DNA of 64,000 nt from Clostridia bacterium (GTDB lineage Bacteria; Bacillota; Clostridia; Oscillospirales; CAG-382). Where the stretch lies: contig JAFQHW010000027.1 of assembly GCA_017397805.1 (NCBI GenBank), positions 5,286-69,285 of the forward strand, written 5' to 3'. The position numbers and the translations under genes are program-made. Below, piece after piece: positions 5,001 through 42,244 of this stretch (positions are counted from its first letter, which is position 1; every line of letters starts with the position of its first letter). Under the pieces are notes generated by a model. That model was not told the origin of the DNA and did not search any database. It saw only the letters and a list, made by a program, of their open reading frames with translations.

Positions 5001-5627
5001 TTACTCTTCTTCATATTCGCTTTTGAAAGCACAGATGGCGTTGTTGATTTCGTCGTAGCCGAAACCGCGGGCAGTCAGAAATGATACCGCCTTAGCTCTC
5101 GCCTGTCTGTCTTCGGGATTGAGGTGGGGAAACTTTTTAAACAAAAGCTCTGTTATAACACCTTCCGGTGTTTCGTCAAGCTCGTCCGTTGCTTGATCAA
5201 TCGCTTCTTTATCGAACCCTTTTGCGTAAAGCTCTTTTTTTATACGCATTACGCCGTAATTCTTGCGCTTTTGAAAATACTCCGCATATTCTTTGCAAAG
5301 GGTCAAATCGTCAAGATAACCCTTTTCCTCAAGCAAAAACAGCGTTTTTTCAATAGCCGTGTCACTAAACGCGGCATTTTTAAGCTTTTTACCTAAGCCA
5401 CGCTTGGAATGAGCTTTGTACGACAAATAATTAAAAGCTTTTTTGATGCACCTTAGCTTTTCTTCGGCTTCCGTCAAGAATTCTAAAGATTCTTCGGTTA
5501 TCTCGCCACCCTGAACTATACCGCTGCGCTCGTAGTCGGCTATGGTGATTCGGTATTTTACTCCGTGCGCCTCAACCAAGGCCTCGCCCTCGCTTTTAAA
5601 AAGCTCTACGGAATAGAAGGCGTTCAT
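5001..5627 (-). CDS. recX: Recombination regulator RecX
   Basis: 208 aa helical-repeat protein directly after recA with a 1-nt overlap. It carries YLDD and RGF repeat motifs. Confidence 0.85.
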   Translation of the reverse strand: MNAFYSVELFKSEGEALVEAHGVKYRITIADYERSGIVQGGEITEESLEFLTEAEEKLRCIKKAFNYLSYKAHSKRGLGKKLKNAAFSDTAIEKTLFLLEEKGYLDDLTLCKEYAEYFQKRKNYGVMRIKKELYAKGFDKEAIDQATDELDETPEGVITELLFKKFPHLNPEDRQARAKAVSFLTARGFGYDEINNAICAFKSEYEEE

Positions 5628-6700
5628 TATTCGTCGTCACCGAAGAAATCGTCCTCGGTATCTTCTATGCTTTCGTTTCCGCCAACACACTTTTCTCTTA
5701 TCTTGGCTTCAATCTCTTCCGCAAGTGCCTTATCCTCGGTAATCAGGTCTCTCACCTTGTCTTTACCTTGACCCAAACGTTCACCGTTATAAGAAAGCCA
5801 AGAACCGCTTTTATCGATTATACCCAACTTAATACCAAGCTCGATAATTTCGCTTTCCTTGGATATGCCCTTACCGTAAAGAATATCAAACTCAGCAGTT
5901 TTGAATGGGGGAGCGACCTTGTTTTTTACTATCTTACATTTGGTGTGGTTGCCTATGATGTCGGAACCGTTTTTAAGTTGTTCGGATTTGCGTATTTCGA
6001 TACGAACGGAAGCGTAAAACTTTAAAGCGATACCGCCGGTGGTCGTTTCGGGGTTGCCGTAGAAAACACCGATCTTTTGTCTTAGCTGGTTTATGAATAT
6101 TACGATACAGTTGGATTTTGCAACCGCGCCCGAAAGCTTACGAAGAGCCTGGGACATCAATCTTGCCTGTACACCTACGTTAGCAGCGCCCATCTCGTTA
6201 TCTATCTCACTCTTGGGAACCAAAGCAGCCACGGAGTCCACAACAACTATCTCAACCGCGCCTGAGCGTATAAGCATCTCTGCAATTTCCAAAGCCTGCT
6301 CGCCGTCATCGGGTTGGGAAACCAACAAATTATCTATATCTACACCCAAAGCCTTTGCATATACGGGGTCAAGAGCGTGCTCCGCATCGATAAACGCGGC
6401 TTCGCCGCCCAATTTTTGCACTTCCGCAACCGCGTGGAGCGCAACCGTAGTCTTACCCGAAGATTCGGGCCCGTAGATCTCTATTATTCTGCCGCGAGGT
6501 AAACCGCCGATACCAAGTGCTAAGTCCAAGGATAAAGAGCCTGTAGAAACACCAGAAACCTCCATGCGTGAATTCTCGCCCAAACGCATTACGGAACCTT
6601 TGCCGTACTTCTTTTCAACCTGTGCCAAGGCGATCTGTAAAGCTTCTTTTTTCTTATCGTTAATCTTATCAGCCATAATATACTGCTGTGCCCAAGGCAC
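5627..6700 (-). CDS. recA: Recombinase RecA (ORF from GTG 6700; the ATG at 6676 giving MADKIND... is an equally plausible start)
   Basis: Walker [10 protein letters not shown] and the conserved motifs FIDAEHALD and [13 protein letters not shown]. Near full-length match to bacterial RecA. Confidence 0.98.
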
Positions 6701-6950: not shown

Positions 6951-8072
6951 ATGGAAAGTGTAAACCACGGTAAGCTTGGAATTATAGTTATGAACAATTG
7001 CGCGGCTCTCGGTAAAAAGATCGAGAAGCATATACTCGCTATGCGCGGTGAGCAGGATTCCGGTAAGTCATACATAATTCCCGTTGACGAAATAAGATTT
7101 TCCAACGGTGAAGGCAAGACTAAGCTTCCCGATTCCGTAAGAGGCAGAGATATTTATATTATTTCCGACGTTGGCAACTACAGTTGCACTTACAAGATGT
7201 TCGGTTATGAAAACCGCATGGGTCCCGATGAACATTTTCAGGATATAAAGCGCGTACTTAGCGCAGTTGGCGGTAAGGCTAACCGTGTTACCGTTATTAT
7301 GCCTTTGCTTTACGCATCCCGTCAGCATAAGCGCAAGGGACGTGAGTCTATGGACTGTGCTATGGCTTTAAAAGAGCTTGAGAATATGGGTGTTAACACT
7401 ATCATCACCTTCGATGCTCACGATCCTACGATACATAACGCTATTCCCTTTACTTCTTTTGAAAACTGCATGGCTACTTATTCTACCTTGAAGCGCTTTA
7501 TCACAAAAGAAGGCCTTTTCACCAAGGATAACCTTACCGTTATAAGCCCCGATACCGGCGCTATGGAGCGTGCAATATTCTATGCAAACGTTATCGGTGT
7601 TGACGTTGGTATGTTCTACAAGCGCCGTGACCATTCCAAAATAGTTAACGGCAAGAACCCTATCGTTGAACACAAGTACATCGGTAGCTCCCTCAGAGGT
7701 AAGAGCGTGCTTATCGTTGACGATATGATCGCTTCGGGCGAGTCTGTAATTGATATTATCAAGAAGATTTCTCACTATAAGATAGACCGCACCTACGTTG
7801 CCGCAACTTTTGCTTTCTTCACCGAAGGCGTTGCAAAGTTTGATAAGCTTTACAAAGAGGGTAAGCTGACTAAGATCTATTCAACAAACCTTTCCTATAT
7901 CCCTGACGAAATCAAAAAGAAGCCTTGGTTTGAGGAGGTTGACCTTTCCAAGTTTATCGGTAAGATAATCAACACTCTCAGCCACGATGCAAGCATCTCT
8001 CCGCTTTTGGACGCGAAGAATAAGATTCGTATGCTCCTTGAGGAAAAAGCGGCAAGGCCTGAGAATAAATAA
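6951..8072 (+). CDS. prs: Ribose-phosphate pyrophosphokinase family protein (long form)
   Basis: 373 aa with the PRPP-binding loop LIVDDMIASGES and the conserved MPLLYASRQHKR region. Confidence 0.85.
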   Translation: MESVNHGKLGIIVMNNCAALGKKIEKHILAMRGEQDSGKSYIIPVDEIRFSNGEGKTKLPDSVRGRDIYIISDVGNYSCTYKMFGYENRMGPDEHFQDIKRVLSAVGGKANRVTVIMPLLYASRQHKRKGRESMDCAMALKELENMGVNTIITFDAHDPTIHNAIPFTSFENCMATYSTLKRFITKEGLFTKDNLTVISPDTGAMERAIFYANVIGVDVGMFYKRRDHSKIVNGKNPIVEHKYIGSSLRGKSVLIVDDMIASGESVIDIIKKISHYKIDRTYVAATFAFFTEGVAKFDKLYKEGKLTKIYSTNLSYIPDEIKKKPWFEEVDLSKFIGKIINTLSHDASISPLLDAKNKIRMLLEEKAARPENK

Positions 8073-8081
8073 AGTTCCCCA

Positions 8082-8116
8082 AAAAGCCGTTGTGTTTTTA
8101 CAACGGCTTTTTATAC
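8082..8116 (+). terminator. Rho-independent terminator after prs
   Basis: Stem AAAAGCCGTTGT / ACAACGGCTTTT followed by a T-run. Confidence 0.8.
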
Positions 8117-8144
8117 TATACATTTCAAGAAAGACGGTGTTATT

Positions 8145-8615
8145 ATGACAATAAGGAAAGCCGAAGAAAAAGACGTAAAAGGAATAATGAATCTGTTGTA
8201 CCAGGTGGCAGAGGTACACCATAAGGGCAGACCCGACATTTTTAAAAGCGGTTGTTCAAAATACAACGAAGACGAGCTAAGCAAAATAATTGCAGACGAA
8301 AATACCCCCGTTCTCGTTGCGGAGGTTGACGGTAATATTTTGGGTCACGCCTTCTGCGTTTTTGAAAGGGCAGGGAAGAACGGCGTTCTCGTGGATAATA
8401 AAAGCCTTTACATCGACGATATTTGCGTGGATGAAAATTGCCGCGGCAAGCATATAGGAAGCGCACTGTGTGAAGCCGTGCTGTCCCTTGCAAAAGAAGA
8501 AGACTGTTATAACGTAACGCTTAACGTGTGGTCCCTTAATAAGCCTGCGGCAGAGTTTTATAAGGCGATGGGGTTTAAAGAACAGAAAGTAACTATGGAA
8601 ACCGTTCTGAAGTAA
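8145..8615 (+). CDS. GNAT family N-acetyltransferase
   Basis: 156 aa with the acetyl-CoA binding motif CRGKHIGSAL and the C-terminal AAEFYKAMGF. Confidence 0.85.
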   Translation: MTIRKAEEKDVKGIMNLLYQVAEVHHKGRPDIFKSGCSKYNEDELSKIIADENTPVLVAEVDGNILGHAFCVFERAGKNGVLVDNKSLYIDDICVDENCRGKHIGSALCEAVLSLAKEEDCYNVTLNVWSLNKPAAEFYKAMGFKEQKVTMETVLK

Positions 8616-8650
8616 CTGATCGCCCATACCGACAATAAAAAATGTGAAGT

Positions 8651-8693
8651 AAGTCCTTGAAAGGCTGTGCAAAGCACTGAATTTCAAGGACTT
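8651..8693. terminator. Terminator-like hairpin after the GNAT gene; the stem is identical to the hairpin at 12170-12197
   Basis: 12-bp stem AAGTCCTTGAAA / TTTCAAGGACTT with a 19-nt loop containing an inner GTGC..GCAC hairpin. A T-rich tail follows. Confidence 0.6.
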
Positions 8694-8751
8694 TCTGCTA
8701 ATAACTTTTTGCGTTTTTCGTGCACGTGCTCAGTGCTTATAATACGGTTTC

Positions 8752-8911
8752 ATATTTTTCCGAAAATAATAAAATTTTTTCTGGACAAAAAGCAAAAAAC
8801 AGACATTATAATAATGAAAGATGAGATATATATATTTTTCCGAAAATAATAAAATTTTTTCTGGACAAAAAGCAAAAAACAGACATTATAATAATGAAAG
8901 ATGAGATATAT
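8752..8911. repeat. Perfect tandem duplication (2 x 80 bp) carrying a promoter-like element
   Basis: 8752-8831 is identical base for base to 8832-8911. Each copy contains TGGACA, then 17 nt, then ATTATA (overlapping TATAAT). Confidence 0.95.
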
Positions 8912-8943
8912 ACAACGAAAAATATTAAATAGGAGGGAAAACT

Positions 8944-11900
8944 ATGCGTAAATTTATATCTCTATTTTTGGTAGCAGCTCTTTGTATGGGACTTTGCACG
9001 TTTGTTGCGGGTGCTGATAACAACGGCGTTCACGATGAACCTGTTTACGATGAATATGTTTCTGAAGAGTCCTATGAAGAAATTTCCTACGAAATCTCCG
9101 ACGAAGAAATTCCCGAAGATTGTCCCGTAACCCCGTCAGACGATAACCTTGCAGCAGGCAAAGATTACACTATCACTACAGATGACGAGCGGCTTGCATA
9201 CAACGGTATTTTGGAAGACGGCATTAACCCCGGTAATGACGGCATGTATTTGGGCCTCTATGAAGGTCAGGCGCTTCTTACTGACGGTAACTACCGTGTA
9301 GGTACCGAAGAAGCTCCTATTTACATGGATGCTGTTTCCGGCACCACCGTTGAATATGCCGGCTCTTACAGAGTTTATACTATAACCGTTGACATGGGTT
9401 CTGTTAACATCGTTTCTTCCGTTGTTTTCCGTGTGGCTCGGCTTTACGGTAACAGAATATTCAACGTAACATGCGTTAAGGTTTCCGAAGACGGTGTTAA
9501 CTATACAGCGGTTGATTTCACCAAGGTATTTGACGTTGTTGCCAACTCCCAACAGGGTGATGCAGCTTTATACACCGGTGAAGATCCTGATTTAAGAGAT
9601 GCTTTCTATGACGTAACCTCTTCTTTTGATGCTGTTAACGCTCAGTACGTTGCGGTAACGTTTGATACTTCCGTACCCGGCGAAGAATACGGTAATTTCT
9701 ACTGTAACATGGACACAGGCAGAGGCTACATCGCTTCCTTCGACGAAATCGAAATTTACGGTCCCGAAGCAAGCGGTGACGTTGAAGAGCCTCAGGAAGG
9801 ATTTTATTACACCTACGAAGGCACTCTTCCCGAATCCGACCACAATTATAAAAACAATGCCGACAAATATTGGTACGTTGAATGTGACGGTGCTTACGGC
9901 ATATCCGTGACCTTCTCCGAGGATACTTATTTTGAGAACTACTACGATTATCTGTATATTAACGGCACCGCTTATACCTATGATGATTTAGCAGGCAAAA
10001 CCGTTACCGTTTACAGCGATACTTTGACACTTAACTTAACGTCAGACGGTTCCGTTACCTATTACGGCTTTGCCGTAACCGAAATAAAGGCGTGCTTCTT
10101 GAGCGAAACCAACGATGTTAGCTGGAGCCTTCGCGTAGAAGGCTATGCCGGTGTTGAAGAAGTTTCCGAAGAACCCTCCGAAGAATCCGATTATCCCGAA
10201 GAATCCGATTATCCCGAAGAATCCGATTATCCCGAAGAATCCGATTATCCCGAAGAATCCGATTACCCCGAAGAATCCGATTACCCCGAAGAATCCGAAG
10301 AACCTTTTATGGGCGCAAGCGGCTTTTGGGGCACCTTGGTATGGGCACTTGACGAAAACGGCTTGCTTACCATCAGCGTTGACGAAGAATGCGCAGGAGA
10401 AGAACTTGGTTATATGCACGGAGTATATGATGGCGAGGCTTGGCGTGCATACATTAGCTATATCACAGCCGTGGTTATTGAAGACGGCGTTAAAAACATC
10501 GGCGATCATGCGTTTTGTTACTGCATAAACCTTAAAAGCATAACCATTCCCGACAGCGTAACAAACATTGGCTATCGTGCATTTTATGACTGCTACAGCC
10601 TTGAAAGCATAAACATAGACAACGAAAACGACGTATACGCTTCCGTAGACGGCGTGTTGTTTAACAAAGATAAAACCGAACTTATAACCTATCCTGCGGG
10701 AAAAGGTGATTCTTCATATACTATCCCCGCAGGCGTAACAAGCATCGGCGATTCTGCGTTTGCATACTGCTACAACCTTGAAAGCATAACCATCCCCGAT
10801 AGCGTAACGAGCATCGGCGATTATGCGTTTTATTACTGCACAAGCCTTGAAAGCGTTACCCTCGGCAACGGCGTTATAAGCATCGGCGATTATGCGTTTG
10901 GATGGTGCGAAAGCCTTGCCAGCATAACCATCCCCGACAGCGTAACGAGCATCGGCGATTATGCGTTTGATTGGTGCACAAACCTTGAGAGCGTAACCAT
11001 CCCCGACAGCGTAACAAGCATTGGTGATTCTGCATTTGAGTATTGTACAGGTCTTAGCACCGTTTATTACGGCGGCATTGAGGCACAATGGAATTCTATA
11101 GAAATCGGTTCTTACAACGAAGAATTAACCGATGCTGAGATTATATTCAATTACAAGACGCCCGATATACAGATAGATGAATCTGCAAACGTTGACGACT
11201 TTACCGCAGGTAATAATGTTGCCGAAGACGCTATGCTTGGCGCAACCGTAAACGGCGAAGCAGCACAGGACAGCGATAAGCTTACCGACGGCGCATACCG
11301 CGGTGACGGTGTACACGGCTGGGATGACGATAGCCTTGCTGCTGAGATAGTAGGCGCGGGTTCCACCGCAGAATACAGCTTCAACCTTGAAGCAAATACC
11401 GATAAGGTAACGTTAATTTTCCGTAACGTATATATCTTCGCCAACACCGACTTCGGTACGCTTTATCTAAAGGTTAACACGGGCGCAGGCATCATACCTT
11501 TAAGCACTTCAAACGGTGTACAGCTTACAAACGTACGTTGCATCCCCGTAGAGGGTGCAGACGGCTACTACGACGTGGTAGCAGAAGCAGAGGTGAACGG
11601 CGCAACCAAGCTTACCGTTACCTTGGTAACTGCAAAAACAAGCTGTCAATTCGACGAGATAGAACTTTACGTTGCAGAAGACGAATCCGGCAACGAATCC
11701 GAGTCCGAATCCGAATCCGAGTCTGAATCCGGTGACGAATCCGACGAGCCTGTGAACGTGCTTTACGGCGATGTAAACGGCGACGGTCAGATCAACTCCC
11801 TCGACGCGGCACAGGTGCTTAAGTACGATGCTATGCTGATCGAGCTTAACGAAAACGCGCTTAAGGCAGCAGACGTAAACGGCGACGGCTCGGTTAACTC

Positions 11901-29824: not shown

Positions 29825-30865
29825 TTATTTGCCCGAAAGCATTTTTTCAAGTACCATCAAGTCGGTGGTCGTAGGGCCGTTAATGCCCACAAGGCTTGTT
29901 GCGTACATAACGCAGGGATTAAGCTCCGTTTTATTCTTTATGCAATTCTCCATAATTGCATAGTCAATGGTAGAAACCATACCGTCACCGTTGGCATCAC
30001 CCTTAACTGCGGTGTAAAGCACGTCACCCTCGTCATTAACTATCCAATAACCTGTGCAAAGAATAACATCGTCGCTTAAAGGTCTGCCGTATTGGTCGTA
30101 AACCGCTACTCTTTCGTTAAACAGAGTTGTTGCCTGCTCTGCGGTAAGACCTTCTGCGGGGAGGGAGAAATAAGCACCATCGATGCTGTAGTCGCTGTTT
30201 TTCTTCGCATCATCCGTAAGTTCAATTATCGGCACGACTTCATCGTCTTCAGCTACGTCTTCAACGTCCCAAATCCATACGTCCTTTATACAATCAAGCT
30301 TTGCCAATTCTTCAATTTCCGCTTTGCCTAAGCTCATAGTGATCCAAGGACTGAATTTCATTTGACCTGTAATTTCACCAAGTCCGTTGCCGATTTGCGG
30401 ATAAGCTTCCAAGATCTTACGCACGCTTGATTCGTTCAGCTCTACAACGGCGCTTCTTCTCAGTGCAAGAGCTTTATCTGCATATTCCATCCTCAGCTTG
30501 TAAAACTCTGCACTGCTTTTGTCAAGTTTATCAACCTCTACACCAAGGGCAAGTGCTATTTGTTCACAAAAGTAAGGCTCGTAAGAGTCGCTTGCTTCGT
30601 CATAAACCCAACCTTCTGCAGTTGCTTTTTCAAGGAAAAGCTCATCCACAGGAGGGCAGAAGTTTATAGAATAGCTTTGGTCGGTATTTAATATAACCTG
30701 AGCAGTAACGGTTTCCTCGGTGTAGTTTGACAAAAACTCTTCATACTTTGCCCCCGAATTAAAACCAACCTTGCTTTCCCATGTTTCTTCCGCATATACG
30801 GGCATAATCGTAAAGGATGCCAAAAGAAGGAAAACGCATAGTGTTTTTAATAACCTTTTTACCAT
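29825..30865 (-). CDS. Secreted hypothetical protein with C-terminal dockerin (second segment degenerate)
   Basis: 346 aa with signal peptide MVKRLLKTLCVFLLLASFTIMPVYA. The dockerin segment GDANGDGMVSTIDYAIMENCI is followed by a degenerate INGPTTTDLMVLEKMLSG. Confidence 0.75.
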   Translation of the reverse strand: MVKRLLKTLCVFLLLASFTIMPVYAEETWESKVGFNSGAKYEEFLSNYTEETVTAQVILNTDQSYSINFCPPVDELFLEKATAEGWVYDEASDSYEPYFCEQIALALGVEVDKLDKSSAEFYKLRMEYADKALALRRSAVVELNESSVRKILEAYPQIGNGLGEITGQMKFSPWITMSLGKAEIEELAKLDCIKDVWIWDVEDVAEDDEVVPIIELTDDAKKNSDYSIDGAYFSLPAEGLTAEQATTLFNERVAVYDQYGRPLSDDVILCTGYWIVNDEGDVLYTAVKGDANGDGMVSTIDYAIMENCIKNKTELNPCVMYATSLVGINGPTTTDLMVLEKMLSGK

Positions 30866-31093: not shown

Positions 31094-32860
31094 TCAAGTA
31101 GCCATCACATTATTACAAGTACCGGCATTGATGATCCCTGCATCGTAACGCAGAATTTGTGCCGCATCAAGGCTATCCACCTTACCGTCGAGGTTGAAAT
31201 CTGAGTAGGCAAAATCTACGCCGGTTAAAATACCTGCATCGTATTTAAGTATAAAAGCCGCATCAAGGCTATTCACCTCGCCGTCACCGTTCGCATCGCC
31301 CGTAGGAACAGTGTAATTCATAACATATTGAATAGGCACAGAATGAGGGAATGTATTGCTCGCGCTTTTATCTATGATATTCCATTGTTCAGCTGTTCCT
31401 GTGTAAAAAACGCTTATAAGGCTGTTACACCCCCAAAAAGCATTATTGGCAATGGTTTCTACACTTGTGGGTATAACTATCCTTTCTAAGTCTGAGCAAG
31501 TAACAAAAGCATTTTTACCTATATCGGTAACGGTGGACGGTATGCTTATGTTTTTAAGCCCTGAAACACCATCAAAGGCGTGGTCGCCTATGGAAAGCAC
31601 ACCATAAGGAATAACGCTTTTTTTGCAACCTGCTATCAGCAACTTGCCTTCGGTTTCAATAATACAGTTGCTCTCGCTATGATATTTTTTGTTTTCTTTA
31701 TCCACCTGCAAATTCGCAAGCTTTTTACAGCATTTTGTTATACCGATGTCAATAAAATCCACATCTTCGGGTATATATAATTCTTCAAGACTCGTGCAGT
31801 ATTCGAAAGCATATCTACCTATGCTTTTTACTGTTTTTGGTATGGTTATTTCTTCAAGGTTTTCACATTCTCCAAACGCCCACCCCATTATCGTTTCTAA
31901 CTCTTTGGATAAAACCACAGCTTTTAAGCTTTTACAACCGTAAAAGGCATAACTGCCGATATCTGTAACACTATCGGGAATAATTATGCTTTTAAGATTT
32001 TCACATCCTCTAAAAGAGTACTCCCTTATTATTTCTAACTTTTCCGATAAAACTATATCTTTTAAGCCTTTACAGCCATAAAAGGCATAACTGCCGATAT
32101 TTGTAACACTATCGGGAATAATTATATTTTCAACCCCGGTGCATTCAGCAAACGCATAGTCGCCTATACTTACAACGCCTTCAGGTATCGTAAACGCCCC
32201 AAAGCCGTTGCAGTTTGCAAAGGCATAGCTCCCGATAGTTACAACTCCCTTAGGGATAACACTGTTGTTGCAACCGTTTATAAGCGTTTTGCTTTCTTTT
32301 TCTATGATACAGTTACCTTCACTGTAATAAATGGTATTGCCTTCCTCAACCTCTATACTATTAAGGCTTGTGCACATGCGAAAAGCAGTGTCAAGTTTAA
32401 CAACACTTGTAGGAATAGTTATAGATTTTAGTCCTGTGCAACCTACAAAAGCGCCTCCTTCAATAGTATGTAATGCGCTTGGAAGCTTAATCTCTTCAAG
32501 AGCTGTACAGTCATAAAACGCCCAGGTTTCAATAACGGTTACAGAGCTTGGCATTATTACTTCGGTTAAGTATTTGTGTCCAAAGAAAGCGGCAAAGCCA
32601 ACAGAAGTAATGCCTTCTTTCATAATAACGGTTTTAACTTTGGTATGATCCCATTTTGTGTCGATGATCGGGTCGGGATAATCGGGGTCTGCCTGCATAT
32701 CTCCTTCGCCACTTATGGTAAGGATGCCGTTTGCATCAAGTATCCATTCAAGCTGTCCCCACGTTCCTGTAGTTTCATCTTCCGCTTTTACCGCAGATGG
32801 GGATACCAACGCTGTAACTGTCAATATCAGTGATAGCGCCAAAAAAACAAATCGTTTCAA
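31094..32860 (-). CDS. Secreted BspA-type leucine-rich-repeat protein with C-terminal type I dockerin
   Basis: The likely TTG start at 32860 lies 8 nt after AGGAGG and gives the signal peptide KRFVFLALSLILTVTALVSPSAVKA. There are many IIIPDSVT.IGSYAF repeat units. The dockerin is GDANGDGEVNSLDAAFILKYDA / SDFNLDGKVDSLDAAQILRYDA. Confidence 0.88.
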   Translation of the reverse strand: MKRFVFLALSLILTVTALVSPSAVKAEDETTGTWGQLEWILDANGILTISGEGDMQADPDYPDPIIDTKWDHTKVKTVIMKEGITSVGFAAFFGHKYLTEVIMPSSVTVIETWAFYDCTALEEIKLPSALHTIEGGAFVGCTGLKSITIPTSVVKLDTAFRMCTSLNSIEVEEGNTIYYSEGNCIIEKESKTLINGCNNSVIPKGVVTIGSYAFANCNGFGAFTIPEGVVSIGDYAFAECTGVENIIIPDSVTNIGSYAFYGCKGLKDIVLSEKLEIIREYSFRGCENLKSIIIPDSVTDIGSYAFYGCKSLKAVVLSKELETIMGWAFGECENLEEITIPKTVKSIGRYAFEYCTSLEELYIPEDVDFIDIGITKCCKKLANLQVDKENKKYHSESNCIIETEGKLLIAGCKKSVIPYGVLSIGDHAFDGVSGLKNISIPSTVTDIGKNAFVTCSDLERIVIPTSVETIANNAFWGCNSLISVFYTGTAEQWNIIDKSASNTFPHSVPIQYVMNYTVPTGDANGDGEVNSLDAAFILKYDAGILTGVDFAYSDFNLDGKVDSLDAAQILRYDAGIINAGTCNNVMAT

Positions 32861-33328
32861 TGTTTGTTCCTCCTGAATATAGATTTCACGAATCAATAAA
32901 TTTACCCATAAACTTTACAGATAAAATGGCTACAACATGGCTCACCCACGACCTTTCTGTATTATAAACGCTCAGCATACAAAACAAGGAATATTTCAGC
33001 TTTAGAATTTTCTACTGTTCATACATGCATTTTTGTGCGAGGTATAAATATCTTGTCGCATTTTCTATAATCTAACCACTACACTATATAATGTCAGTTT
33101 TTTACTTTTTGTCCAAAAAAATTTTCAAATATTTTCAAAAAAATTGGAATTGTTTTAGAAACGCCGATTTTGCGTTATTCCGTCTTTCTGTAAAAAATCA
33201 TCAAAATATTATGAAAATACAACAATCGTAAGAAAATATGCCGTTTTTTCGGCTTTTTAAGCAAAATTCTTGACTATTGTCCCGATAGATGGTATCTTAA
33301 AAGAAAGTAAATGCAGGAGGAACATGAT

Positions 33329-34392: not shown

Positions 34393-34456
34393 CCTTTACA
34401 TCAGGCGAAATTTGTGTTATAATTAATGAAAATAAGAATGTATAACGGAGAGGTTT

Positions 34457-35677
34457 ATGAAGAAAGTTTTTGGGTTTTATACTAAAGTACCGCTAATATT
34501 GCGTATTGCGGTGGGTTTGACTATCGGTATCGTGTTGGGACTTTTTGTTCCTCAAGCCGATTTCGTTACCGTTTTCGGTGACGTTTTTGTAGGTGCGTTG
34601 AAAGCTATTGCGCCTATACTGGTTTTCGTTTTGGTTATTTCTTCTTTGGCAAGTGCCGGCCAGGGCATTGGCTCAAGGTTTAAAACGGTAATCGTTTTGT
34701 ATATGTTAAGCACGTTTTTGGCGGCGGTCGTTGCCGTTGTCGGCAGTTACATCTTTAAGGTTACTATTCCTCTCAGTGAAGCGGTTGACCAAACTGCGCC
34801 CGAAGGTTTAGGCGAAGTATTTAAGACTTTGCTCGGCAATATGGTAATGAATCCGATTACTGCCATTATCGAAGGTAAATACATAGGTATTCTCACTTGG
34901 TCGGTGGTTTTGGGTTTGGCTTTGCGCGCTTCGGGTGACAATACAAAGAAAGTACTTAATGATATTTCCGCCGGTGTATCCAAGGCGGTTGCGTGGGTAA
35001 TTCAGCTCGCCCCCTTCGGAATTATGGGTCTTGTTTATTCTTCTGTAGGCGAATACGGAATTGAAATATTTACGGATTACGGTAAGGTGTTGTTATTGCT
35101 GGTAGGTTGCATGATTGCCGTGGCACTTATCGTTGACCCCTTGGTTGTTGCAATTACTCTTAGAAAAAACCCGTACCCCTTGGTATTAAAATGCTTTAAA
35201 GAATCGGGTATTACCGCATTCTTCACAAGAAGCTCAGCGGCAAATATCCCCGTTAATATGAAGCTTTGCGAAAAGCTCGGGCTTGACAAAGAATATTATT
35301 CCGTAGCTATTCCCTTGGGTGCAACTATCAATATGGACGGTGCCGCAATAACCATAACGGTATTGTCCCTTTCGGCTGCGTTTTCACAAGGAATAAGCGT
35401 TAATTTTATGGTTGCAATATTACTTAGCTTCGTTGCTACCCTCGGTGCGTGTGGTGCATCCGGGGTGGCGGGCGGCTCCCTTTTGCTTATCCCTATGGCG
35501 TGTTCTTTACTTGGTGTCGGTCAGGATATCGCAATGCAGGTCGTTGCCGTTGGATTTATCATCGGCGTTGTTCAAGACTCTCTTGAAACGGCTATCAATT
35601 CTTCCGGTGACGTTATTTTCTGTGCAACTGCGGAATACTACGACAGGAAGAAAAAAGGCGAAACTATAGATTTCTAA
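34457..35677 (+). CDS. sstT: Serine/threonine:sodium symporter (DAACS family)
   Basis: 406 aa polytopic protein with FFTRSSAANIPVN and GATINMDGAAI motifs. Confidence 0.9.
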   Translation: MKKVFGFYTKVPLILRIAVGLTIGIVLGLFVPQADFVTVFGDVFVGALKAIAPILVFVLVISSLASAGQGIGSRFKTVIVLYMLSTFLAAVVAVVGSYIFKVTIPLSEAVDQTAPEGLGEVFKTLLGNMVMNPITAIIEGKYIGILTWSVVLGLALRASGDNTKKVLNDISAGVSKAVAWVIQLAPFGIMGLVYSSVGEYGIEIFTDYGKVLLLLVGCMIAVALIVDPLVVAITLRKNPYPLVLKCFKESGITAFFTRSSAANIPVNMKLCEKLGLDKEYYSVAIPLGATINMDGAAITITVLSLSAAFSQGISVNFMVAILLSFVATLGACGASGVAGGSLLLIPMACSLLGVGQDIAMQVVAVGFIIGVVQDSLETAINSSGDVIFCATAEYYDRKKKGETIDF

Positions 35678-35822: not shown

Positions 35823-35851
35823 TTGCAAATATGAACGGATTGTGTTACAAT
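35823..35851 (+). promoter_or_regulatory. Promoter for the DUF1538 / PII-like operon
   Basis: TTGCAA (35823-35828), 17 nt, TACAAT (35846-35851). Confidence 0.55.
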
Positions 35852-35885
35852 TATTGCAGATCACAGAGAGCACTGAGGGGTTTTG

Positions 35886-37415
35886 ATGACACATATTTTT
35901 GCATCTTTTAAGGAGTCGCTTACGTCGGTTTTGCCCATAGCACTGATCGTTATGGTTCTTTCGGTTACGGTCGTTGCACTTGAGGCAGGCGTACTGGTTT
36001 TGTTTTTGTTCGGTACCGTTTTTCTTATTCTCGGTATGAGCTTTTTTACCGTTGGTTCAACCATTTCCATGGAGCCGTTGGGTGACGGTATAGGTAAAAC
36101 CTTAACCAAGAAAAAGCTCTCAATAATACCCATTGTAATATGCCTTGTGCTTGGCTTTATTATTACCGTTTCGGAGCCGGATTTGCAGGTGCTTGCGGAA
36201 CAGGTACCTACGATCCCCAACGCGGTTTTGATAAACTGTGTTGGTATCGGTGTAGGTCTTTTCCTTGCTGTAACTCTGGTCAGAAACAAAAAAGGTTTTC
36301 CTCTTCGCAGGCTTCTCGTTTTGTTTTACGGTGTCGTAATTGCTCTTGCGTTCTTCGCCCCCGGTGAGTTTGTTGCCACGGCTTTTGACTCAGGCGGTGT
36401 TACCACCGGCCCTATCACCGTACCGTTTATTATGGCAATGGGTGCTGGTCTTGCAGCAAGCAAGAAGGGCAAAAGCGCAGGAGAGCAAAGCTTCGGCCTT
36501 GTTGCGCTTTGCAGTATAGGTCCCATTCTATCCGTTCTTCTTCTCAGTATTTTCTATAATCCCGCGGCCGAAACTTCAACCTATGAAATAGTAGACGTTA
36601 AAACTACCATGGATGCATTCCGTCAGTTTGCAATCGCACTCCCGCATTACGCAATGGAAATTGCAACCGCGTTTGCTCCTATCGGCTTGATTTTTGTTGC
36701 CTTTCAGGTTATAACCCGAAGATACCGTATGCATAGCGTGCTTAAAATGACCTTCGGTTTTGTTTATACATATGTGGGACTCGTGCTTTTCTTAACCGGT
36801 GCAAACGTTGGATTTATGCCTGCCGGTAGGCTTATAGGCGCTGAAATCGCGGGCGGTTCTTTTAAATCCCTGATTATACCCATCGGTATGCTTATGGGTT
36901 ATTTCGTTGTTACCGCAGAGCCTGCCGTACACTCTCTTAAAAGACAGGTTAACGATATAACCAAAGGTGCTATCTCACAAAAATCCGTAGCGATCTCTCT
37001 TTCGATAGGTGTTTCGGCTTCGGTTGGTATCGCAATGCTTCGTGTTTTGACGGGCATACCTATATTGCCTTTCCTGATTGTGGGATATGCCGCGTCGCTT
37101 GTCATCAGCTACTTCGTTCCCAGTATCTATACGGGCATCGCGTTTGACTCGGGCGGTGTTGCAAGCGGTCCCATGACGTCAACTTTTATGCTTCCGTTTG
37201 CCATGGGCGCTTGTGAAGCAATTGGAGGAAACGTTATGACCGATGCTTTCGGTATCGTGGCGCTTATTGCAATGGCACCGCTTATTACTATTCAGGTGCT
37301 CGGTCTTGTGGAGAGAAGACAGCACGCAAGCAGAGTTAAGAAGTTCCACAACGAAATCAGCACCGTCAAGGATGATATCGTATTTTTCTGTGAGGAGGGT
37401 ACAGTAAATGATTAA
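35886..37415 (+). CDS. DUF1538-family polytopic membrane protein, internally duplicated
   Basis: About 509 aa. The two halves share motifs: TVSEPDLQVLAEQV vs TAEPAVHSLKRQV, and AFDSGGVTTGPITVPFIMAMG vs AFDSGGVASGPMTSTFMLPFAMG. Confidence 0.75.
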   Translation: MTHIFASFKESLTSVLPIALIVMVLSVTVVALEAGVLVLFLFGTVFLILGMSFFTVGSTISMEPLGDGIGKTLTKKKLSIIPIVICLVLGFIITVSEPDLQVLAEQVPTIPNAVLINCVGIGVGLFLAVTLVRNKKGFPLRRLLVLFYGVVIALAFFAPGEFVATAFDSGGVTTGPITVPFIMAMGAGLAASKKGKSAGEQSFGLVALCSIGPILSVLLLSIFYNPAAETSTYEIVDVKTTMDAFRQFAIALPHYAMEIATAFAPIGLIFVAFQVITRRYRMHSVLKMTFGFVYTYVGLVLFLTGANVGFMPAGRLIGAEIAGGSFKSLIIPIGMLMGYFVVTAEPAVHSLKRQVNDITKGAISQKSVAISLSIGVSASVGIAMLRVLTGIPILPFLIVGYAASLVISYFVPSIYTGIAFDSGGVASGPMTSTFMLPFAMGACEAIGGNVMTDAFGIVALIAMAPLITIQVLGLVERRQHASRVKKFHNEISTVKDDIVFFCEEGTVND

Positions 37416-38073
37416 AAAACCAATGGCTCTCCTTTCTATCGTCCAACAGGGAAAAGGAAAAAAGTTGATAAAGGAATTGATTAAATTAAAAGTAATAATC
37501 AACTTTCAAACCGTAGGTCTCGGTACGGCACCTACCGAAATGATGGATATTTTCGGTGTCGGCAGTCACGATAAGGATATAATCATCAGCATCGGTGCGG
37601 AAACGGATGTCAGAACGATGATGGCCGCATTCGCAGAGAACGTCCAAAGCCAATCTAAATACGGTGGACTGATGGTAGTCCTGGACGTATCTGCATCAAG
37701 CCGTCTATTGAATGAAATTCTCAATTTCGGCAACCAAAACACAGATAAGGAGTTTGCGCCCATGAAGAACGAGCATCACAACAATCTTATAGTAATTTCG
37801 GTTAACGAAGGTCATAGTGAGAGCGTGATGCAGATCGCTCGTAAGGCGGGCGCAACGGGCGGTACCGTTATCAAAGGTAGACTTGCTGACACCGAACAGT
37901 TTTCCGAGTTCGTAAAGACTGAGGTTGACAGCGAGCGTGAAATACTCTTCATTTTGGCTCCTGCCAAGGTTGGCGGTCAGATAATGGAGGACGTTAACCG
38001 CGAACATGGGCTTACGTCGGAAGCTAACGGTATAATCTTCGCTCTTCCCACCGAGAAAGCGTTTAAGATATAA
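37408..38073 (+). CDS. Fused tandem PII-like (GlnB-fold) signalling protein
   Basis: 221 aa, overlapping the DUF1538 gene by 8 nt. There are two beta-alpha-beta halves: ALLSIVQQGKGKKLIKELIK...IIISIGAET...GGLMVVLDVS and NLIVISVNEGHSESVMQIARKAGATGGTVIKGR...REILFILAP...GIIFALP. Confidence 0.65.
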   Translation: MIKKPMALLSIVQQGKGKKLIKELIKLKVIINFQTVGLGTAPTEMMDIFGVGSHDKDIIISIGAETDVRTMMAAFAENVQSQSKYGGLMVVLDVSASSRLLNEILNFGNQNTDKEFAPMKNEHHNNLIVISVNEGHSESVMQIARKAGATGGTVIKGRLADTEQFSEFVKTEVDSEREILFILAPAKVGGQIMEDVNREHGLTSEANGIIFALPTEKAFKI

Positions 38074-38090: not shown

Positions 38091-38141
38091 AAGGCTGTTT
38101 CCAATGCACCGAATTTGCATTAAAAACAGCCTTGATTTTTT
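38091..38141. terminator. Bidirectional terminator between the PII-like gene and ygjV
   Basis: Stem AAGGCTGTTT / AAACAGCCTT with an inner ATGCA..TGCAT hairpin, followed by GATTTTTT. Confidence 0.75.
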
Positions 38142-38151
38142 ATGTAAACCG

Positions 38152-38676
38152 TTAACTCTCAGCCTTTTTTCTGTAGCGTATCAAAGAAACCGTAATGGAA
38201 ACAAGGGCAAAAAGCGAGCCTAACGATGCGCCGTATGCTTTGGAGATGAAGTTGTACACCAACCAAAACGGTGTGGCACATAAGCCCCATTTGCGCAGTG
38301 TTTGTTCGTCGTCGCACCACAAGCTGACGGTTTGGAAAATTGCGCCTGCAATGGGCAGCAGCTCAATATAGCTTCTTCTGAGTATCGCAATTCCGATACC
38401 AACCAGGAAAATTATCGTCAGTGTGGATACTACGATAATCTTTTTGTGCTTTTGGAAAGGCGGAGCATTTTTTCTCGCGGCAAAAAAAGAAGCCACGGTG
38501 GATAAAATATCCATCACAGCGCCGGAAAATGCGCCTAACAAAAGATATTGCAACACGTAAAAGGTGTTGGAGATAAATGTTACCCATACGATGTGTATCC
38601 GCTTTTTAAGCTGATAGCTCAACAGATATAAGCCTACCGCCAAAAAGCCGATTATTTGCGTGATAATCATTAACAT
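38152..38676 (-). CDS. YgjV-family inner membrane protein
   Basis: 174 aa with five or more TM segments. The N-terminal half IIGFLAVGLYLLSYQ...VLQYLLLG is typical of the family, as I recall it. Confidence 0.6.
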   Translation of the reverse strand: MLMIITQIIGFLAVGLYLLSYQLKKRIHIVWVTFISNTFYVLQYLLLGAFSGAVMDILSTVASFFAARKNAPPFQKHKKIIVVSTLTIIFLVGIGIAILRRSYIELLPIAGAIFQTVSLWCDDEQTLRKWGLCATPFWLVYNFISKAYGASLGSLFALVSITVSLIRYRKKAES

Positions 38677-39145: not shown

Positions 39146-39508
39146 TTAGTTTTTATTTCCGTACACAGCAAATATATCATCCATTTCGGCAGGTAAATTA
39201 AAAGAACTGTTTACACAGATCACCTCAACCTTGTCCCAACTATCTTTAAGGCAAATATCATCAACCGTTTTCTTAACATACAATTCTTCAAAATCCTTAT
39301 AAAATATCTCACCTGAACCACGATGGTCCGCGGGCCATCCATTCTTAATCATTACGTTAGAATAACCACAGCGTTGAAACGAAATATTATCTTCATATTT
39401 GACAAGCATATAGGTTTCTTTGGTATCGGTAAAACAAAATTCGCATTCTGAATGATGTGGGATTAAGTTGAAAATTTCAAGAAATTTCTCATATGATATT
39501 ACTGCCAT
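39146..39508 (-). CDS. Hypothetical protein (orphan, 120 aa) with its own promoter
   Basis: ATG at 39508 preceded by GGAGTG. The minus-strand promoter is TTGAAG (39558-39553), 17 nt, TATAAT (39535-39530). No family recognised. Confidence 0.55.
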   Translation of the reverse strand: MAVISYEKFLEIFNLIPHHSECEFCFTDTKETYMLVKYEDNISFQRCGYSNVMIKNGWPADHRGSGEIFYKDFEELYVKKTVDDICLKDSWDKVEVICVNSSFNLPAEMDDIFAVYGNKN

Positions 39509-39561
39509 GGTTATCACTCCTATTTTTGTATTATAACACACGTTTGTCAAATCTTCAACAA

Positions 39562-39613: not shown

Positions 39614-42244
39614 TTATTTAGATTCTTTGATCGAGGCTTGCGCCGCCGCGAGTCTCGCTATAGGCACACGGAAAGGAGAGCAAGAAACGTAGTCGAGACC
39701 TATTTTGTGGCAGAACTCAACGGAAACGGGGTCGCCGCCGTGTTCGCCGCAGATACCGCAGTGGATATTGGGACGAGCTTGCTTGCCGAGAGTAACAGCC
39801 ATTTCCATAAGCTTACCAACGCCGTTTTGGTCAAGCTTTGCGAAGGGATCGTTTTCGTACACCTTAGCTTCGTAGTACGCGCTGAGGAACTTGCCTGCAT
39901 CGTCACGGCTGAAGCCGAAGGTCATCTGAGTAAGGTCGTTGGTACCGAAGCAGAAGAACTCAGCTTCCTTAGCCATCTCGTCAGCGGTAAGACAAGCTCT
40001 GGGGATTTCTATCATAGTGCCAACTTCGTACTTAAGCTGGGCGCCTGCGGCGGCGATCTCAGCATCAGCGGTTGCAACAACAACGTCCTTAACGTACTTA
40101 AGTTCTTTAACTTCGCCGGTAAGAGGAATCATGATCTCGGGAACGAGGTCCCAATCGGGATGCGCTTTCTTAATGTTGATAGCCGCGCGGATAACTGCGC
40201 TGGTCTGCATCTTTGCAATTTCGGGATAGGTAACGGTAAGACGGCAACCGCGGTGACCCATCATGGGGTTAAACTCGTGCAGAGAGGTAATGATATTCTT
40301 AATATCTTCAACGGATTTGCCTTGTGCATCGGCGAGAGCCTTGATGTCGGCTTCTTCGGTGGGAACGAACTCGTGAAGAGGAGGGTCAAGGAATCGGATG
40401 CAAACGGGCATACCCTCAAGAGCTTCGTAAATCTTTTCAAAGTCGCCTTGCTGATAGGGAAGTATCTTTGCAAGCGCCGCTTCGCGTTCTTCAACGGTGT
40501 CGGCACAAATCATTTCGCGGAAAGCGGCAATTCTCTCTGCCTCAAAGAACATATGCTCGGTACGGCAAAGACCGATACCTTCAGCGCCAAGCTCACGAGC
40601 TTTTTTAGCGTCTGCGGGAGTGTCCGCATTTGTGCGAACCTTTAGTGTTCTGAATTCGTCAGCCCATGCCATAAGTCTGCCGAATTCGCCTGCGATTTCA
40701 GCATCAACGGTGGGGATGATACCATCGTATATATTACCGGTAGAGCCGTCAAGGGAAATATAATCGCCTTCATTATATGTCTTACCGCTTAGGGTAAACT
40801 TTTTGTTTTCCTCGTCCATTATAATCTCACCGCAACCGGAAACACAGCAAGTACCCATGCCGCGTGCAACAACAGCCGCGTGAGAGGTCATACCGCCGCG
40901 AACGGTGAGTATGCCCTGAGAAGCCTTCATACCCGTTATATCTTCGGGAGAGGTTTCAAGACGAACGAGTATAACCTTTTCGCCGCGTGCGTTCCAAGCA
41001 TCAGCGTCTTCGGCTGTAAATACAACCTTACCGCAAGCCGCACCGGGAGATGCACCCAGACCCTTGCCGGCGGGAACGGCGGCCTTAAGAGCCTTAGCAT
41101 CAAACTGAGGATGGAGAAGGGTATCGAGGTTGCGGGGATCTATCATCGCAACAGCCTTCTTCTTATCTATCATGCCTTCATCAACAAGGTCACAAGCTAT
41201 TTTAAGAGCTGCTTTTGCGGTTCTCTTTCCGTTGCGCGTCTGAAGCATAAAGAGTTTGCCGTGTTCAATGGTGAACTCCATATCCTGCATATCGCGGTAG
41301 TGATCTTCAAGTATGCCGCAAACCTTTGTGAATTCATCAAAAGCTTCGGGGAATTTGCTTGCCATTTCTGCAATGGGCATAGGAGTACGAACGCCTGCAA
41401 CAACGTCTTCGCCTTGAGCATTGGTGAGGAATTCGCCCATAAGACCTTTTTCACCGGTTGCAGGGTCACGTGTAAACGCAACGCCCGTACCACAGTCGTC
41501 GCCCATGTTACCAAATGCCATCATCTGTACGTTAACGGCGGTACCCCAGGAGTAGGGAATATCGTTGTCGCGACGGTAAACGTTAGCTCTGGGGTTATCC
41601 CAAGAACGGAAAACCGCGGTCACAGCGCCCATAAGCTGTTTTTTGGGATCGGTGGGGAAGTCTTCGCCGATCTTGTTCTTGTACTCAGCCTTGAACTGTT
41701 CAGCAAGAGTCTTAAGGTCGTCGGCAGTAAGGTCAACGTCCTGGGTAACGCCCTTGTCTTTCTTCATCTCGTCGATAAGTTCTTCAAAATACTTCTTACC
41801 AACTTCCATTACTACGTCGGAATACATCTGTATAAATCTTCTGTAGCAATCGTATGCCCAGCGAGCGTTGCCCGACTGAGTAGCCATGGTTTCAACAACC
41901 TCTTCGTTAAGACCGAGGTTAAGAATAGTGTCCATCATGCCGGGCATAGAGGCACGGGCGCCTGAGCGAACGGAAACGAGAAGGGGATTTTCCTTATCTC
42001 CGAACTTCTTGCCGGTTATACCTTCAAGTTTGTCAATATATTCCATTATTTGAGCTTGTATTTCATCGTTAATAACTTTGCCGTCTTCATAGTATTGAGT
42101 GCAAGCTTCTGTAGAAACGGTAAAACCTTGAGGCACGGGAAGACCGATATTGGTCATCTCAGCCAGATTTGCGCCCTTGCCGCCTAATAGCTCGCGCATT
42201 TGACCGTTGCCTTCACTGAACAGATAAACATACTTTTTTGCCAT
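39614..42244 (-). CDS. ppdK: Pyruvate, phosphate dikinase
   Basis: 876 aa with the phosphohistidine motif GGMTSHAAVVARG and the PEP-utilising motifs GLCRTEHMF and FFCFGTNDLTQ. Confidence 0.98.
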   Translation of the reverse strand: MAKKYVYLFSEGNGQMRELLGGKGANLAEMTNIGLPVPQGFTVSTEACTQYYEDGKVINDEIQAQIMEYIDKLEGITGKKFGDKENPLLVSVRSGARASMPGMMDTILNLGLNEEVVETMATQSGNARWAYDCYRRFIQMYSDVVMEVGKKYFEELIDEMKKDKGVTQDVDLTADDLKTLAEQFKAEYKNKIGEDFPTDPKKQLMGAVTAVFRSWDNPRANVYRRDNDIPYSWGTAVNVQMMAFGNMGDDCGTGVAFTRDPATGEKGLMGEFLTNAQGEDVVAGVRTPMPIAEMASKFPEAFDEFTKVCGILEDHYRDMQDMEFTIEHGKLFMLQTRNGKRTAKAALKIACDLVDEGMIDKKKAVAMIDPRNLDTLLHPQFDAKALKAAVPAGKGLGASPGAACGKVVFTAEDADAWNARGEKVILVRLETSPEDITGMKASQGILTVRGGMTSHAAVVARGMGTCCVSGCGEIIMDEENKKFTLSGKTYNEGDYISLDGSTGNIYDGIIPTVDAEIAGEFGRLMAWADEFRTLKVRTNADTPADAKKARELGAEGIGLCRTEHMFFEAERIAAFREMICADTVEEREAALAKILPYQQGDFEKIYEALEGMPVCIRFLDPPLHEFVPTEEADIKALADAQGKSVEDIKNIITSLHEFNPMMGHRGCRLTVTYPEIAKMQTSAVIRAAINIKKAHPDWDLVPEIMIPLTGEVKELKYVKDVVVATADAEIAAAGAQLKYEVGTMIEIPRACLTADEMAKEAEFFCFGTNDLTQMTFGFSRDDAGKFLSAYYEAKVYENDPFAKLDQNGVGKLMEMAVTLGKQARPNIHCGICGEHGGDPVSVEFCHKIGLDYVSCSPFRVPIARLAAAQASIKESK

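Follow-up and report, generated by a model that had tools for sequence, protein, structure and literature searches.

A fused double-DUF1538 membrane protein translationally coupled to a tandem PII-like protein in an uncultured clostridium, and the conservation of the gene pair among its relatives

The 64,000-nt stretch of contig JAFQHW010000027.1 analysed here (the window) derives from an uncultured gut member of the Clostridia whose close relatives are ruminant metagenome-assembled genomes of Acutalibacteraceae and Oscillospiraceae. It carries a gene for a 509-aa membrane protein made of two DUF1538 repeats, overlapped at its end by a gene for a 221-aa protein that consists of two PII-like domains. 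The two genes form a self-contained two-gene operon, and comparison with related loci shows that DUF1538 and PII constitute an obligate module, nearly universal for DUF1538 transporters. The features of the operon are the following.

35823..35851, plus strand: promoter-like site 35 nt ahead of the start codon, TTGCAA-17-TACAAT plus an upstream TG (consensus scan, 9/12 matches)
35886..37415, plus strand: gene for the fused double-DUF1538 membrane protein, 509 aa (open reading frame list; Pfam PF07556)
37392..37399, plus strand: Shine-Dalgarno sequence GAGGAGGG of the partner gene, within the 3′ end of the DUF1538 gene
37408..37415, plus strand: start/stop overlap ATGATTAA, 8 nt, translational coupling (read from the sequence)
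37408..38073, plus strand: gene for the tandem PII-like protein, 221 aa (open reading frame list, family, model)
38091..38133, strand not assigned: 18-bp hairpin between the convergent partner and YgjV-like genes (terminator scan, called on the minus strand)

At the junction the first reading frame ends in GTA AAT GAT TAA and the second begins with ATG ATT AAA, an overlap of 8 nt, as the first-pass annotation had stated; in the fuller stretch GAGGAGGGTACAGTAAATGATTAAAAAA the DUF1538 stop codon TAA, at 37413-37415, lies 8 nt into the partner gene. The sequence GAGGAGGG, a strong Shine-Dalgarno site, stands 8 nt before the second ATG, and AGGAGGG is present at the junction in relatives too. The overlap is not a matter of chance, since it measures 8 nt in 50 of 66 scorable relatives and 4 nt in 9 more, with 0-1 nt in another 6. 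The second gene is thus translationally coupled to the first, and both products would therefore be made in fixed proportion. An alternative TTG start at 35883 would lengthen the DUF1538 product to 510 aa. The promoter-like site is weak, such sites being no more numerous in this region than in shuffled sequence, and a search of the leader upstream of the DUF1538 gene for riboswitches or leader RNAs in Rfam returned none at E ≤ 0.1. The hairpin is likely a shared, bidirectional terminator, which presupposes that it is also used on the plus strand.

The association of the two genes was followed from both sides. The search anchored on the partner gave at least 531 confirmed species-level genome matches; 80 of these loci were kept together with 4 metagenome loci, and a DUF1538 gene lay directly upstream in all of them (84/84). 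Anchoring on DUF1538 gave 80 metagenome loci and 6 plasmid or chromid records, of which 78 had enough room downstream to be informative; a PII-like gene followed in 77 of these, the lone exception (L115) being a frameshifted remnant. The supposition that the genes would prove to be conserved neighbours is therefore borne out in both directions. The architecture of the two partners also co-varies. Behind fused double-DUF1538 genes, an N-terminal-type (h1) and then a C-terminal-type (h2) PII domain were found in 34 of 34 informative loci, so that the 2+2 arrangement, which the first-pass annotation had taken for an oddity, is instead the rule throughout the fused clade. The two domains are encoded by one gene in 32 of these loci and by two adjacent genes in the other 2 (L132, 3914-4723; L139, 3690-4468); the separate genes imply a heteromeric PII pair and perhaps represent an intermediate in the history of the fusion. 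Split DUF1538 pairs, with the repeats in subunits A and B, are followed by a lone single-domain, h2-like PII gene in 19 of 28 loci; of the others, 4 have two single PII genes, 3 have an h2-h2 fusion, 1 has an h1-h2 fusion and 1 bears a PII domain on the C terminus of subunit B. In the last case (L098, 2956-4026), a single open reading frame of 356 aa contains, according to Pfam, DUF1538 subunit B (residues 25-234) and a P-II domain above the gathering score (residues 252-350); such a Rosetta-stone fusion argues for physical contact between transporter and PII protein. Both parts of the system are already named in database annotation. A literature search for the DUF1538-PII pairing, for tandem PII proteins and for PII-like proteins with UmpAB found no relevant description, and the pairing is without experimental study in the literature searched.

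The identity of the 221-aa partner emerges at the level of its family. The protein by itself had no match in Pfam or NCBIfam and no useful phmmer match among PDB sequences, and BLASTP of its N-terminal against its C-terminal half detected no similarity; profiles were required. Its family comprises 813 close clusters and 1,482 representatives at 50% identity, nearly all of 215-245 aa. Of 91 diverse members, 78 individually match Pfam P-II (PF00543; best E 4.1e-12), and 4 have weak matches to DUF2179. The assignment to the PII family proposed by the first-pass annotation thus fails for the window protein alone in a hidden Markov model search and succeeds for most of its relatives. Aligned with hhalign, the two halves of the family match each other with a probability of 98.2% (E 3.9e-14, 96 columns), and half 2 of the family profile can be aligned over its whole length with the solved P-II chains 9p1x_H and 1ufl_A (E 0.01). 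The best of these sequence matches, PDB 9p1x, is a nitrogenase-NifI complex and has no bearing on transport. In RefSeq, "P-II family nitrogen regulator" is the name given to homologs of about 222 aa in Paraclostridium, Vescimonas and Peptoclostridium. The domains of the protein are as follows.

37408..37725, plus strand: PII-like domain 1 (h1), aa 1-106 (hhalign, residue counts)
37726..37779, plus strand: interdomain linker of low confidence, aa 107-124 (predicted local distance difference test score, pLDDT, of 54-58 in blocks 101-120; length varies in the alignment)
37780..38070, plus strand: PII-like domain 2 (h2), aa 125-221 (family profile against solved P-II chains; residue counts)

An AlphaFold2 (AF2) model built on the family alignment (pLDDT 87.2, predicted template modelling score, pTM, 0.82) contains two beta-alpha-beta-(short helix)-beta-alpha-beta units, each with a T-loop between beta2 and beta3. 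With Foldseek, each domain of this model retrieved SbtB, PotN, GlnK2 and bacterial and plant PII proteins at a probability of 1.00 and a target TM-score of 0.6-0.76, so that the two ferredoxin-like folds predicted earlier are both recovered; no solved chain with a matching two-domain arrangement was retrieved. That the 221-aa protein consists of two fused, diverged PII domains is accordingly confirmed at the family level and by the predicted structure.

The 509-aa protein belongs to DUF1538: it matches the Pfam model (PF07556) over two stretches with E 1e-127 and 424 bits, the cut-off being 22.6. Self-alignment shows the two homologous halves that had been noticed earlier to be 26% identical over 218 aa (E 5.7e-30), and the (S/A)EP and AFDSGGV motifs attributed to each half are found in both.

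35886..36605, plus strand: DUF1538 repeat 1, aa 1-240, 7 transmembrane segments (TMS), predicted with the N terminus inside (self-alignment, lysine plus arginine counts)
36171..36179, plus strand: helix-break motif S96-E97-P98, E97 and P98 invariant (sequence; model break between helices 80-95 and 98-106)
36381..36401, plus strand: first AFDSGGV motif, aa 166-172, D168 invariant, followed by TTGP (sequence; model helix break 172-178)
36606..37412, plus strand: DUF1538 repeat 2, aa 241-509, oriented oppositely, its C-terminal helix basic and cytoplasmic and its tail acidic (lysine plus arginine counts, model)
36915..36923, plus strand: helix-break motif A344-E345-P346 of repeat 2 (sequence; model break between helices 327-344 and 346-358)
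37140..37160, plus strand: second AFDSGGV motif, aa 419-425, followed by ASGP (sequence; model helix break 426-429)

E97, P98, R133, D168 and several glycines are invariant in both repeats from Clostridia to Alphaproteobacteria, so the motifs of the repeats are not there by chance. The AF2 model (pLDDT 87.1, pTM 0.85) is all-helical, with about 7 TMS per repeat and a long C-terminal helix (450-493), and its helix breaks coincide with SEP, AEP and both GGV-x-xGP motifs. Lysines and arginines were counted per loop set (N terminus and loops 2, 4 and 6 versus loops 1, 3 and 5 and the C terminus) in 70 repeat pairs, fused and split. The counts were 10.07 versus 1.10 in fused repeat 1 and 2.66 versus 9.07 in fused repeat 2, and 5.59 versus 2.69 in split subunit A and 4.31 versus 9.41 in split subunit B. 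Since the bias reverses between the repeats, the transporter is best described as an inverted 7+7 repeat with both termini inside; the inverted-repeat architecture that had been suspected from the motifs, with a cytoplasmic C terminus, is supported by these statistics together with the helix breaks at both motif pairs. It also agrees with the 7 TMS predicted for UmpA and for UmpB (PMC5484666). This topology puts the C terminus of the transporter on the side needed for a cytoplasmic PII protein or for the fusion domain of L098. Comparison of the model with solved structures (NhaA-like, 7TMIR/UraA-SLC26, LeuT and others) gave no significant fold match, and phmmer of the protein against PDB sequences gave no useful match either.

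A shortened form of the transporter occurs in one Ruminococcaceae-like lineage (L001-L004), where the DUF1538 gene (5238-6008) encodes only 256 aa and the partner gene lies at 6001-6669. Repeat 1 up to AFDSGGV runs in frame into the tail of repeat 2, the identity of the repeat switching exactly at this motif, and the 8-nt overlap with the tandem PII gene is retained. Its occurrence on 23 contigs, which come from several samples, makes the chimera look like a genuine deletion between the repeats; a single 7-TMS protein of this kind would have to form an antiparallel (dual-topology) homodimer or else be defective.

PII proteins bind nucleotides and 2-oxoglutarate through G27, T29, G35, G37, R38, Q39, K58, G87, G89, K90 and R101/R103, in clefts of the trimer to which one subunit contributes the T-loop base, the B-loop and K58 and the next subunit the G27-T29 strand. 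These positions were aligned to the numbering of Thermus thermophilus PII, and residues were counted in three groups of partners. Single-domain partners (n=38) have kept G27 (38), T29 (38), G35 (38), G37 (36), K58 (38), G87 (33), G89 (38) and F92 (36), with R38 changed to I/V, Q39 falling in a gap, K90 changed to I/L/V and R101 to G. Half 1 of the tandem proteins (n=35) has kept G35 (34), K58 (32, plus 3 R), G87 (26) and G89 (35), with V/G/F at position 27 and F/Y/L at position 29. Half 2 (n=35) has kept G27 (35) and T29 (34), with G87 replaced by A in 29 sequences and A/G at position 89. R38, Q39, K90 and R101 are replaced in all subgroups. The window protein follows the same pattern: h1 retains the T-loop base (G37-x-G39-T-A), K56 and the B-loop G87 and has lost G27/T29, while h2 carries the invariant AGATGGT (G148...T153, the equivalent of PII G24-T29) and a degenerate B-loop. 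The T-loop is about 5 residues shorter than in canonical PII proteins; its helix is conserved in h1 (family consensus SE.LD.LGLG), and G39, A41 and G50 are invariant in h1 in the family alignment. A search for T-loop equivalents and nucleotide-binding residues, as the first-pass annotation had advised, is thus answered in part: the T-loop, the glycines, T29 and K58 are there, divided between the halves, whereas the basic and 2-oxoglutarate residues have been replaced.

The complementary degeneration of the two halves suggests that selection acts on one h1/h2 cleft and not on its reciprocal. Together with the tandem fusion, it argues against a simple homotrimer with three intersubunit clefts. 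The loss of the basic and of the Mg- and 2-oxoglutarate-coordinating residues argues against sensing of MgATP and 2-oxoglutarate in the manner of GlnB, and the ligand is probably sensed in some other way, since the canonical residues are absent. Hence, the earlier description of the protein as a nucleotide-sensing plug should be read as an analogy, the basic residues that hold the ATP phosphates and 2-oxoglutarate being absent.

As to the function of the transporter, the closest guide is UmpAB of Halomonas zhaodongensis, a heterodimer conferring Na+/Li+ tolerance and showing pH-dependent Na+(Li+,K+)/H+ antiport (PMC5484666). Joint expression of just umpA and umpB in Escherichia coli KNabc (pUC-umpAB, pETDuet) suffices for antiport, and the paper makes no mention of a PII partner (PMC5484666). 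A PII protein from the same genome is thus not needed for transport by UmpAB, which fits a regulatory role. UmpA and UmpB (NF041627 and NF041628) are also the only named NCBIfam matches of the 509-aa protein. The statement that the substrate of DUF1538 proteins is undefined therefore needs amending for the family, in which an antiporter has been published, and still stands for the window protein, which falls far below the UmpA and UmpB cut-offs. Cation/proton exchange is the default guess for relatives of UmpAB; its transfer by analogy to the window protein is tentative.

These observations can be combined into a proposal that we favour with some reserve. The membrane protein would be a 14-TMS secondary transporter made of two inverted 7-TMS DUF1538 repeats, in effect the UmpA/UmpB heterodimer in fused form. 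Each repeat would provide two broken helices, (S/A)EP and AFDSGGV-x-TGP, together with invariant membrane-embedded E, D and R residues that may form a central ion-binding site, and the most likely activity would be exchange of a monovalent cation for protons. The tandem PII protein would most probably act as a pseudo-heterodimer with one preserved interdomain ligand cleft, to which h1 would bring the T-loop base, K58 and the B-loop glycines and h2 the G27/T29 strand. Its conserved T-loop helices may dock on the cytoplasmic face of the pseudo-symmetric transporter, as the one natural fusion would suggest, and a small-molecule signal received by the tandem PII protein would switch the transporter on or off. 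On balance, a 14-TMS cation/H+ exchanger governed by a ligand-switched tandem-PII pseudo-heterodimer appears to us the probable reading of the locus.

Several points weigh against this proposal. The 509-aa protein scores 169.5 bits against an equivalog cut-off of 490 for UmpA and 119.4 against 500 for UmpB; it is a homolog and not an equivalog, so the substrate cannot be confidently transferred, and the functional assignment of UmpAB itself comes from one heterologous study. Given the loss of K90, R38, Q39 and R101, the tandem PII protein might sense a ligand that is not an adenine nucleotide, or nothing at all. Both the oligomeric state and the geometry assumed for the interdomain cleft are deduced from residue patterns alone. 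The L098 fusion is found on one 35-kb metagenome contig only and might be due to a sequencing frameshift. Finally, no third gene family recurs broadly beside DUF1538-PII loci that would point to a substrate.

A bolder version of the proposal would have DUF1538 adopt a novel fold and the PII protein abandon the trimer paradigm altogether, a single h1/h2 cleft sitting 1:1 on the pseudo-two-fold cytoplasmic face and binding something else than MgATP/2-oxoglutarate, such as an ion, AMP, cAMP or another nucleotide. If true, this would give PII signalling a class new in both stoichiometry and mechanism, which hundreds of species would share; it is conceivable, and we regard it as doubtful in this full form.

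Alternatively, DUF1538 may carry an anion or a metabolite such as bicarbonate, the antiport of UmpAB being a side activity or specific to that subfamily, and the tandem PII protein may report the carbon or energy status as SbtB does. The SbtB structures are indeed the best fold matches of each PII domain, an invariant arginine (R133) stands in each repeat beside E97 and D168, the fused clade lacks a conserved cation-related neighbour, and the shortfall against the UmpA and UmpB cut-offs leaves room for another substrate. On the other hand, the sole experimental datum for the DUF1538 family is cation/proton antiport, the recurring neighbours, where present, are cation transporters, DUF1538 is unrelated to SbtA by Pfam or fold, and the 221-aa protein ends in ...TEKAFKI without the C-terminal CGPxGC extension of SbtB. 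We therefore consider a different substrate unlikely, while giving it a serious hearing. A third view would make the PII-like protein an obligatory structural or assembly subunit with a vestigial cleft rather than a ligand-controlled switch, as might be expected from its near-universal coupling in fixed stoichiometry, from the existence of a covalent DUF1538::P-II fusion and from the disappearance of the basic ligand residues (R38, Q39, K90, R101) in all subgroups. However, no PII partner from its own genome is needed for UmpAB to transport in E. coli, the glycine scaffold of the cleft and K58 are conserved at 90-100% over very large distances, and the selection on one cleft that the complementary pattern of the halves implies is difficult to square with a vestigial one; this view thus seems to us improbable. 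The last possibility, that the genes are neighbours by accident and that the 221-aa protein has another target of regulation such as nitrogen metabolism, as its RefSeq name would have it, is effectively refuted by the neighbourhood statistics, the pair being kept in 84/84 and 77/78 loci while all other neighbours vary, with conserved translational coupling, co-varying architecture and a fusion protein, no glnA, amtB or nif genes near the pair and no 2-oxoglutarate/ATP residues in the protein.

The genes on either side of the pair were considered as functional partners and discarded. Directly upstream lies the gene for a serine/threonine:Na+ symporter, SstT (34457-35677, plus strand; NCBIfam equivalog, 569 bits versus a cut-off of 308), preceded by a strong promoter-like site at 34395-34423; downstream and convergent is the gene for a YgjV-like inner-membrane protein (Pfam Imp-YgjV; 38152-38676, minus strand). 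Neither sstT nor the YgjV-like gene is kept in any of 80 close loci, and the PIG-L gene of the window is likewise not conserved near the pair. A 134-aa open reading frame with no family match (39146-39550, minus strand), which precedes the gene for pyruvate phosphate dikinase (39614-42244, minus strand), is, like the YgjV-like gene, not linked to the pair in relatives. Split-type pairs are adjoined by a CPA2-type (Kef) Na_H_Exchanger with TrkA_N/C in four loci (L098, L107, L118, L127), by a P-type cation ATPase in three (L094, L099, L164) and by an ACT-domain-pair protein in three (L095, L106, L114). The cation-transport genes, present at 7 split-type loci and universal in none of their kinds, give a weak hint of cation homeostasis. 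In the L001-L004 lineage, a cdaA-cdaR operon for cyclic di-AMP synthase (DAC, YbbR) lies at 7517-9612 on the minus strand, about 850 nt downstream of the pair. Cyclic di-AMP is a known ligand of the PII-like PstA/DarA; nevertheless, the link is probably coincidental, as the operon was seen in this lineage only, where it has the opposite strand, and the T-loop and B-loop do not have the proportions of those in PstA. Elsewhere in the window, two secreted proteins (29825-30865, minus strand, 346 aa; 31094-32896, minus strand, 600 aa) bear paired C-terminal GDANGDG.V...D repeats that look dockerin-like by eye, the larger one also having many leucine-rich (BspA-like) repeats; their translations are suggestive of cellulosome-type or cell-surface scaffolding proteins.

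Few signal integrators are as widespread as PII proteins, which are viewed as trimers plugging targets that are themselves trimeric or oligomeric. The locus stands for a large family, with at least 1,482 clusters (50% identity) and at least 531 species-level genome matches, in which a fused, asymmetrically degenerated PII pair is genetically locked to one transporter family. Such a family could show how a regulator family with three-fold symmetry adapts to a pseudo-symmetric, two-fold target. The DUF1538 family, common in gut Clostridia and Proteobacteria, has no solved structure and one functional report, and the system could reveal both its function and its regulation. The natural fusion, the residue pattern and the co-variation of architectures (fused with fused, split with single) could help to define a new mode of PII ligand or target recognition. 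Nothing is overturned by these findings, and database annotation already hints at the pairing; the pair is a good target for study rather than a surprise.

It remains to place the pair among the known systems. With SbtA-SbtB it shares a PII-like gene immediately downstream of a secondary-transporter gene, a presumed docking of the T-loop on the cytoplasmic face, and PII domains that each match best the SbtB structures 6mmq and 6ntb (probability 1.0, target TM-score 0.67-0.76). It differs in that the transporter is a DUF1538 protein unrelated to SbtA, with DUF1538 as its only Pfam match, and that the partner has two diverged domains in tandem and is not a trimer-forming monomer, with other ligand residues and no C-terminal CGPxGC redox tail. 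With UmpAB it shares the Pfam family, the heterodimer of UmpA and UmpB (7 predicted TMS each) corresponding to the two fused repeats; here, however, the subunits are joined in one 509-aa chain whose scores are far below the equivalog cut-offs. As with GlnK and AmtB, a membrane transporter is transcribed together with a protein of the PII family that presumably binds it, and the fold and the G27/T29/G35/G37/K58/G87/G89 scaffold are common to both. In contrast to that system, there is no AmtB here, the T-loop is shorter by about 5 residues, R38, Q39, K90 and R101 are replaced, and a tandem architecture does not permit a simple homotrimer. PII-NG proteins, which are linked with operons for czcABC proton/cation antiporters (Sant'Anna 2009, according to PMC7726332), offer another example of a divergent PII clade genetically tied to a proton-cation antiporter; their partner is the RND-type CzcABC pump of Proteobacteria and not DUF1538, and their PII protein is single-domain. 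YitT/DUF2179 membrane proteins such as Borrelia BB0017 carry a C-terminal PII-like domain without the canonical ligand residues (PMC6516651), a PII-like domain attached to a membrane protein being analogous to the DUF1538::P-II fusion of L098. Their membrane domain is, however, a YitT domain with four transmembrane segments, their single PII-like domain has truncated loops, and there is no operon pair; the Borrelia paper was accordingly rejected as a precedent, since it concerns YitT/DUF2179 and not the family linked to DUF1538. The DUF1538-PII pair is thus not a member of the SbtA-SbtB, AmtB-GlnK or UmpAB systems, because the transporter family differs, the UmpAB equivalog test fails, and the canonical PII ligand residues and a simple trimer are not found. 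By analogy, its working principle would resemble that of SbtA-SbtB and AmtB-GlnK, and the pair is a real and widespread variant of the transporter-plus-PII theme.

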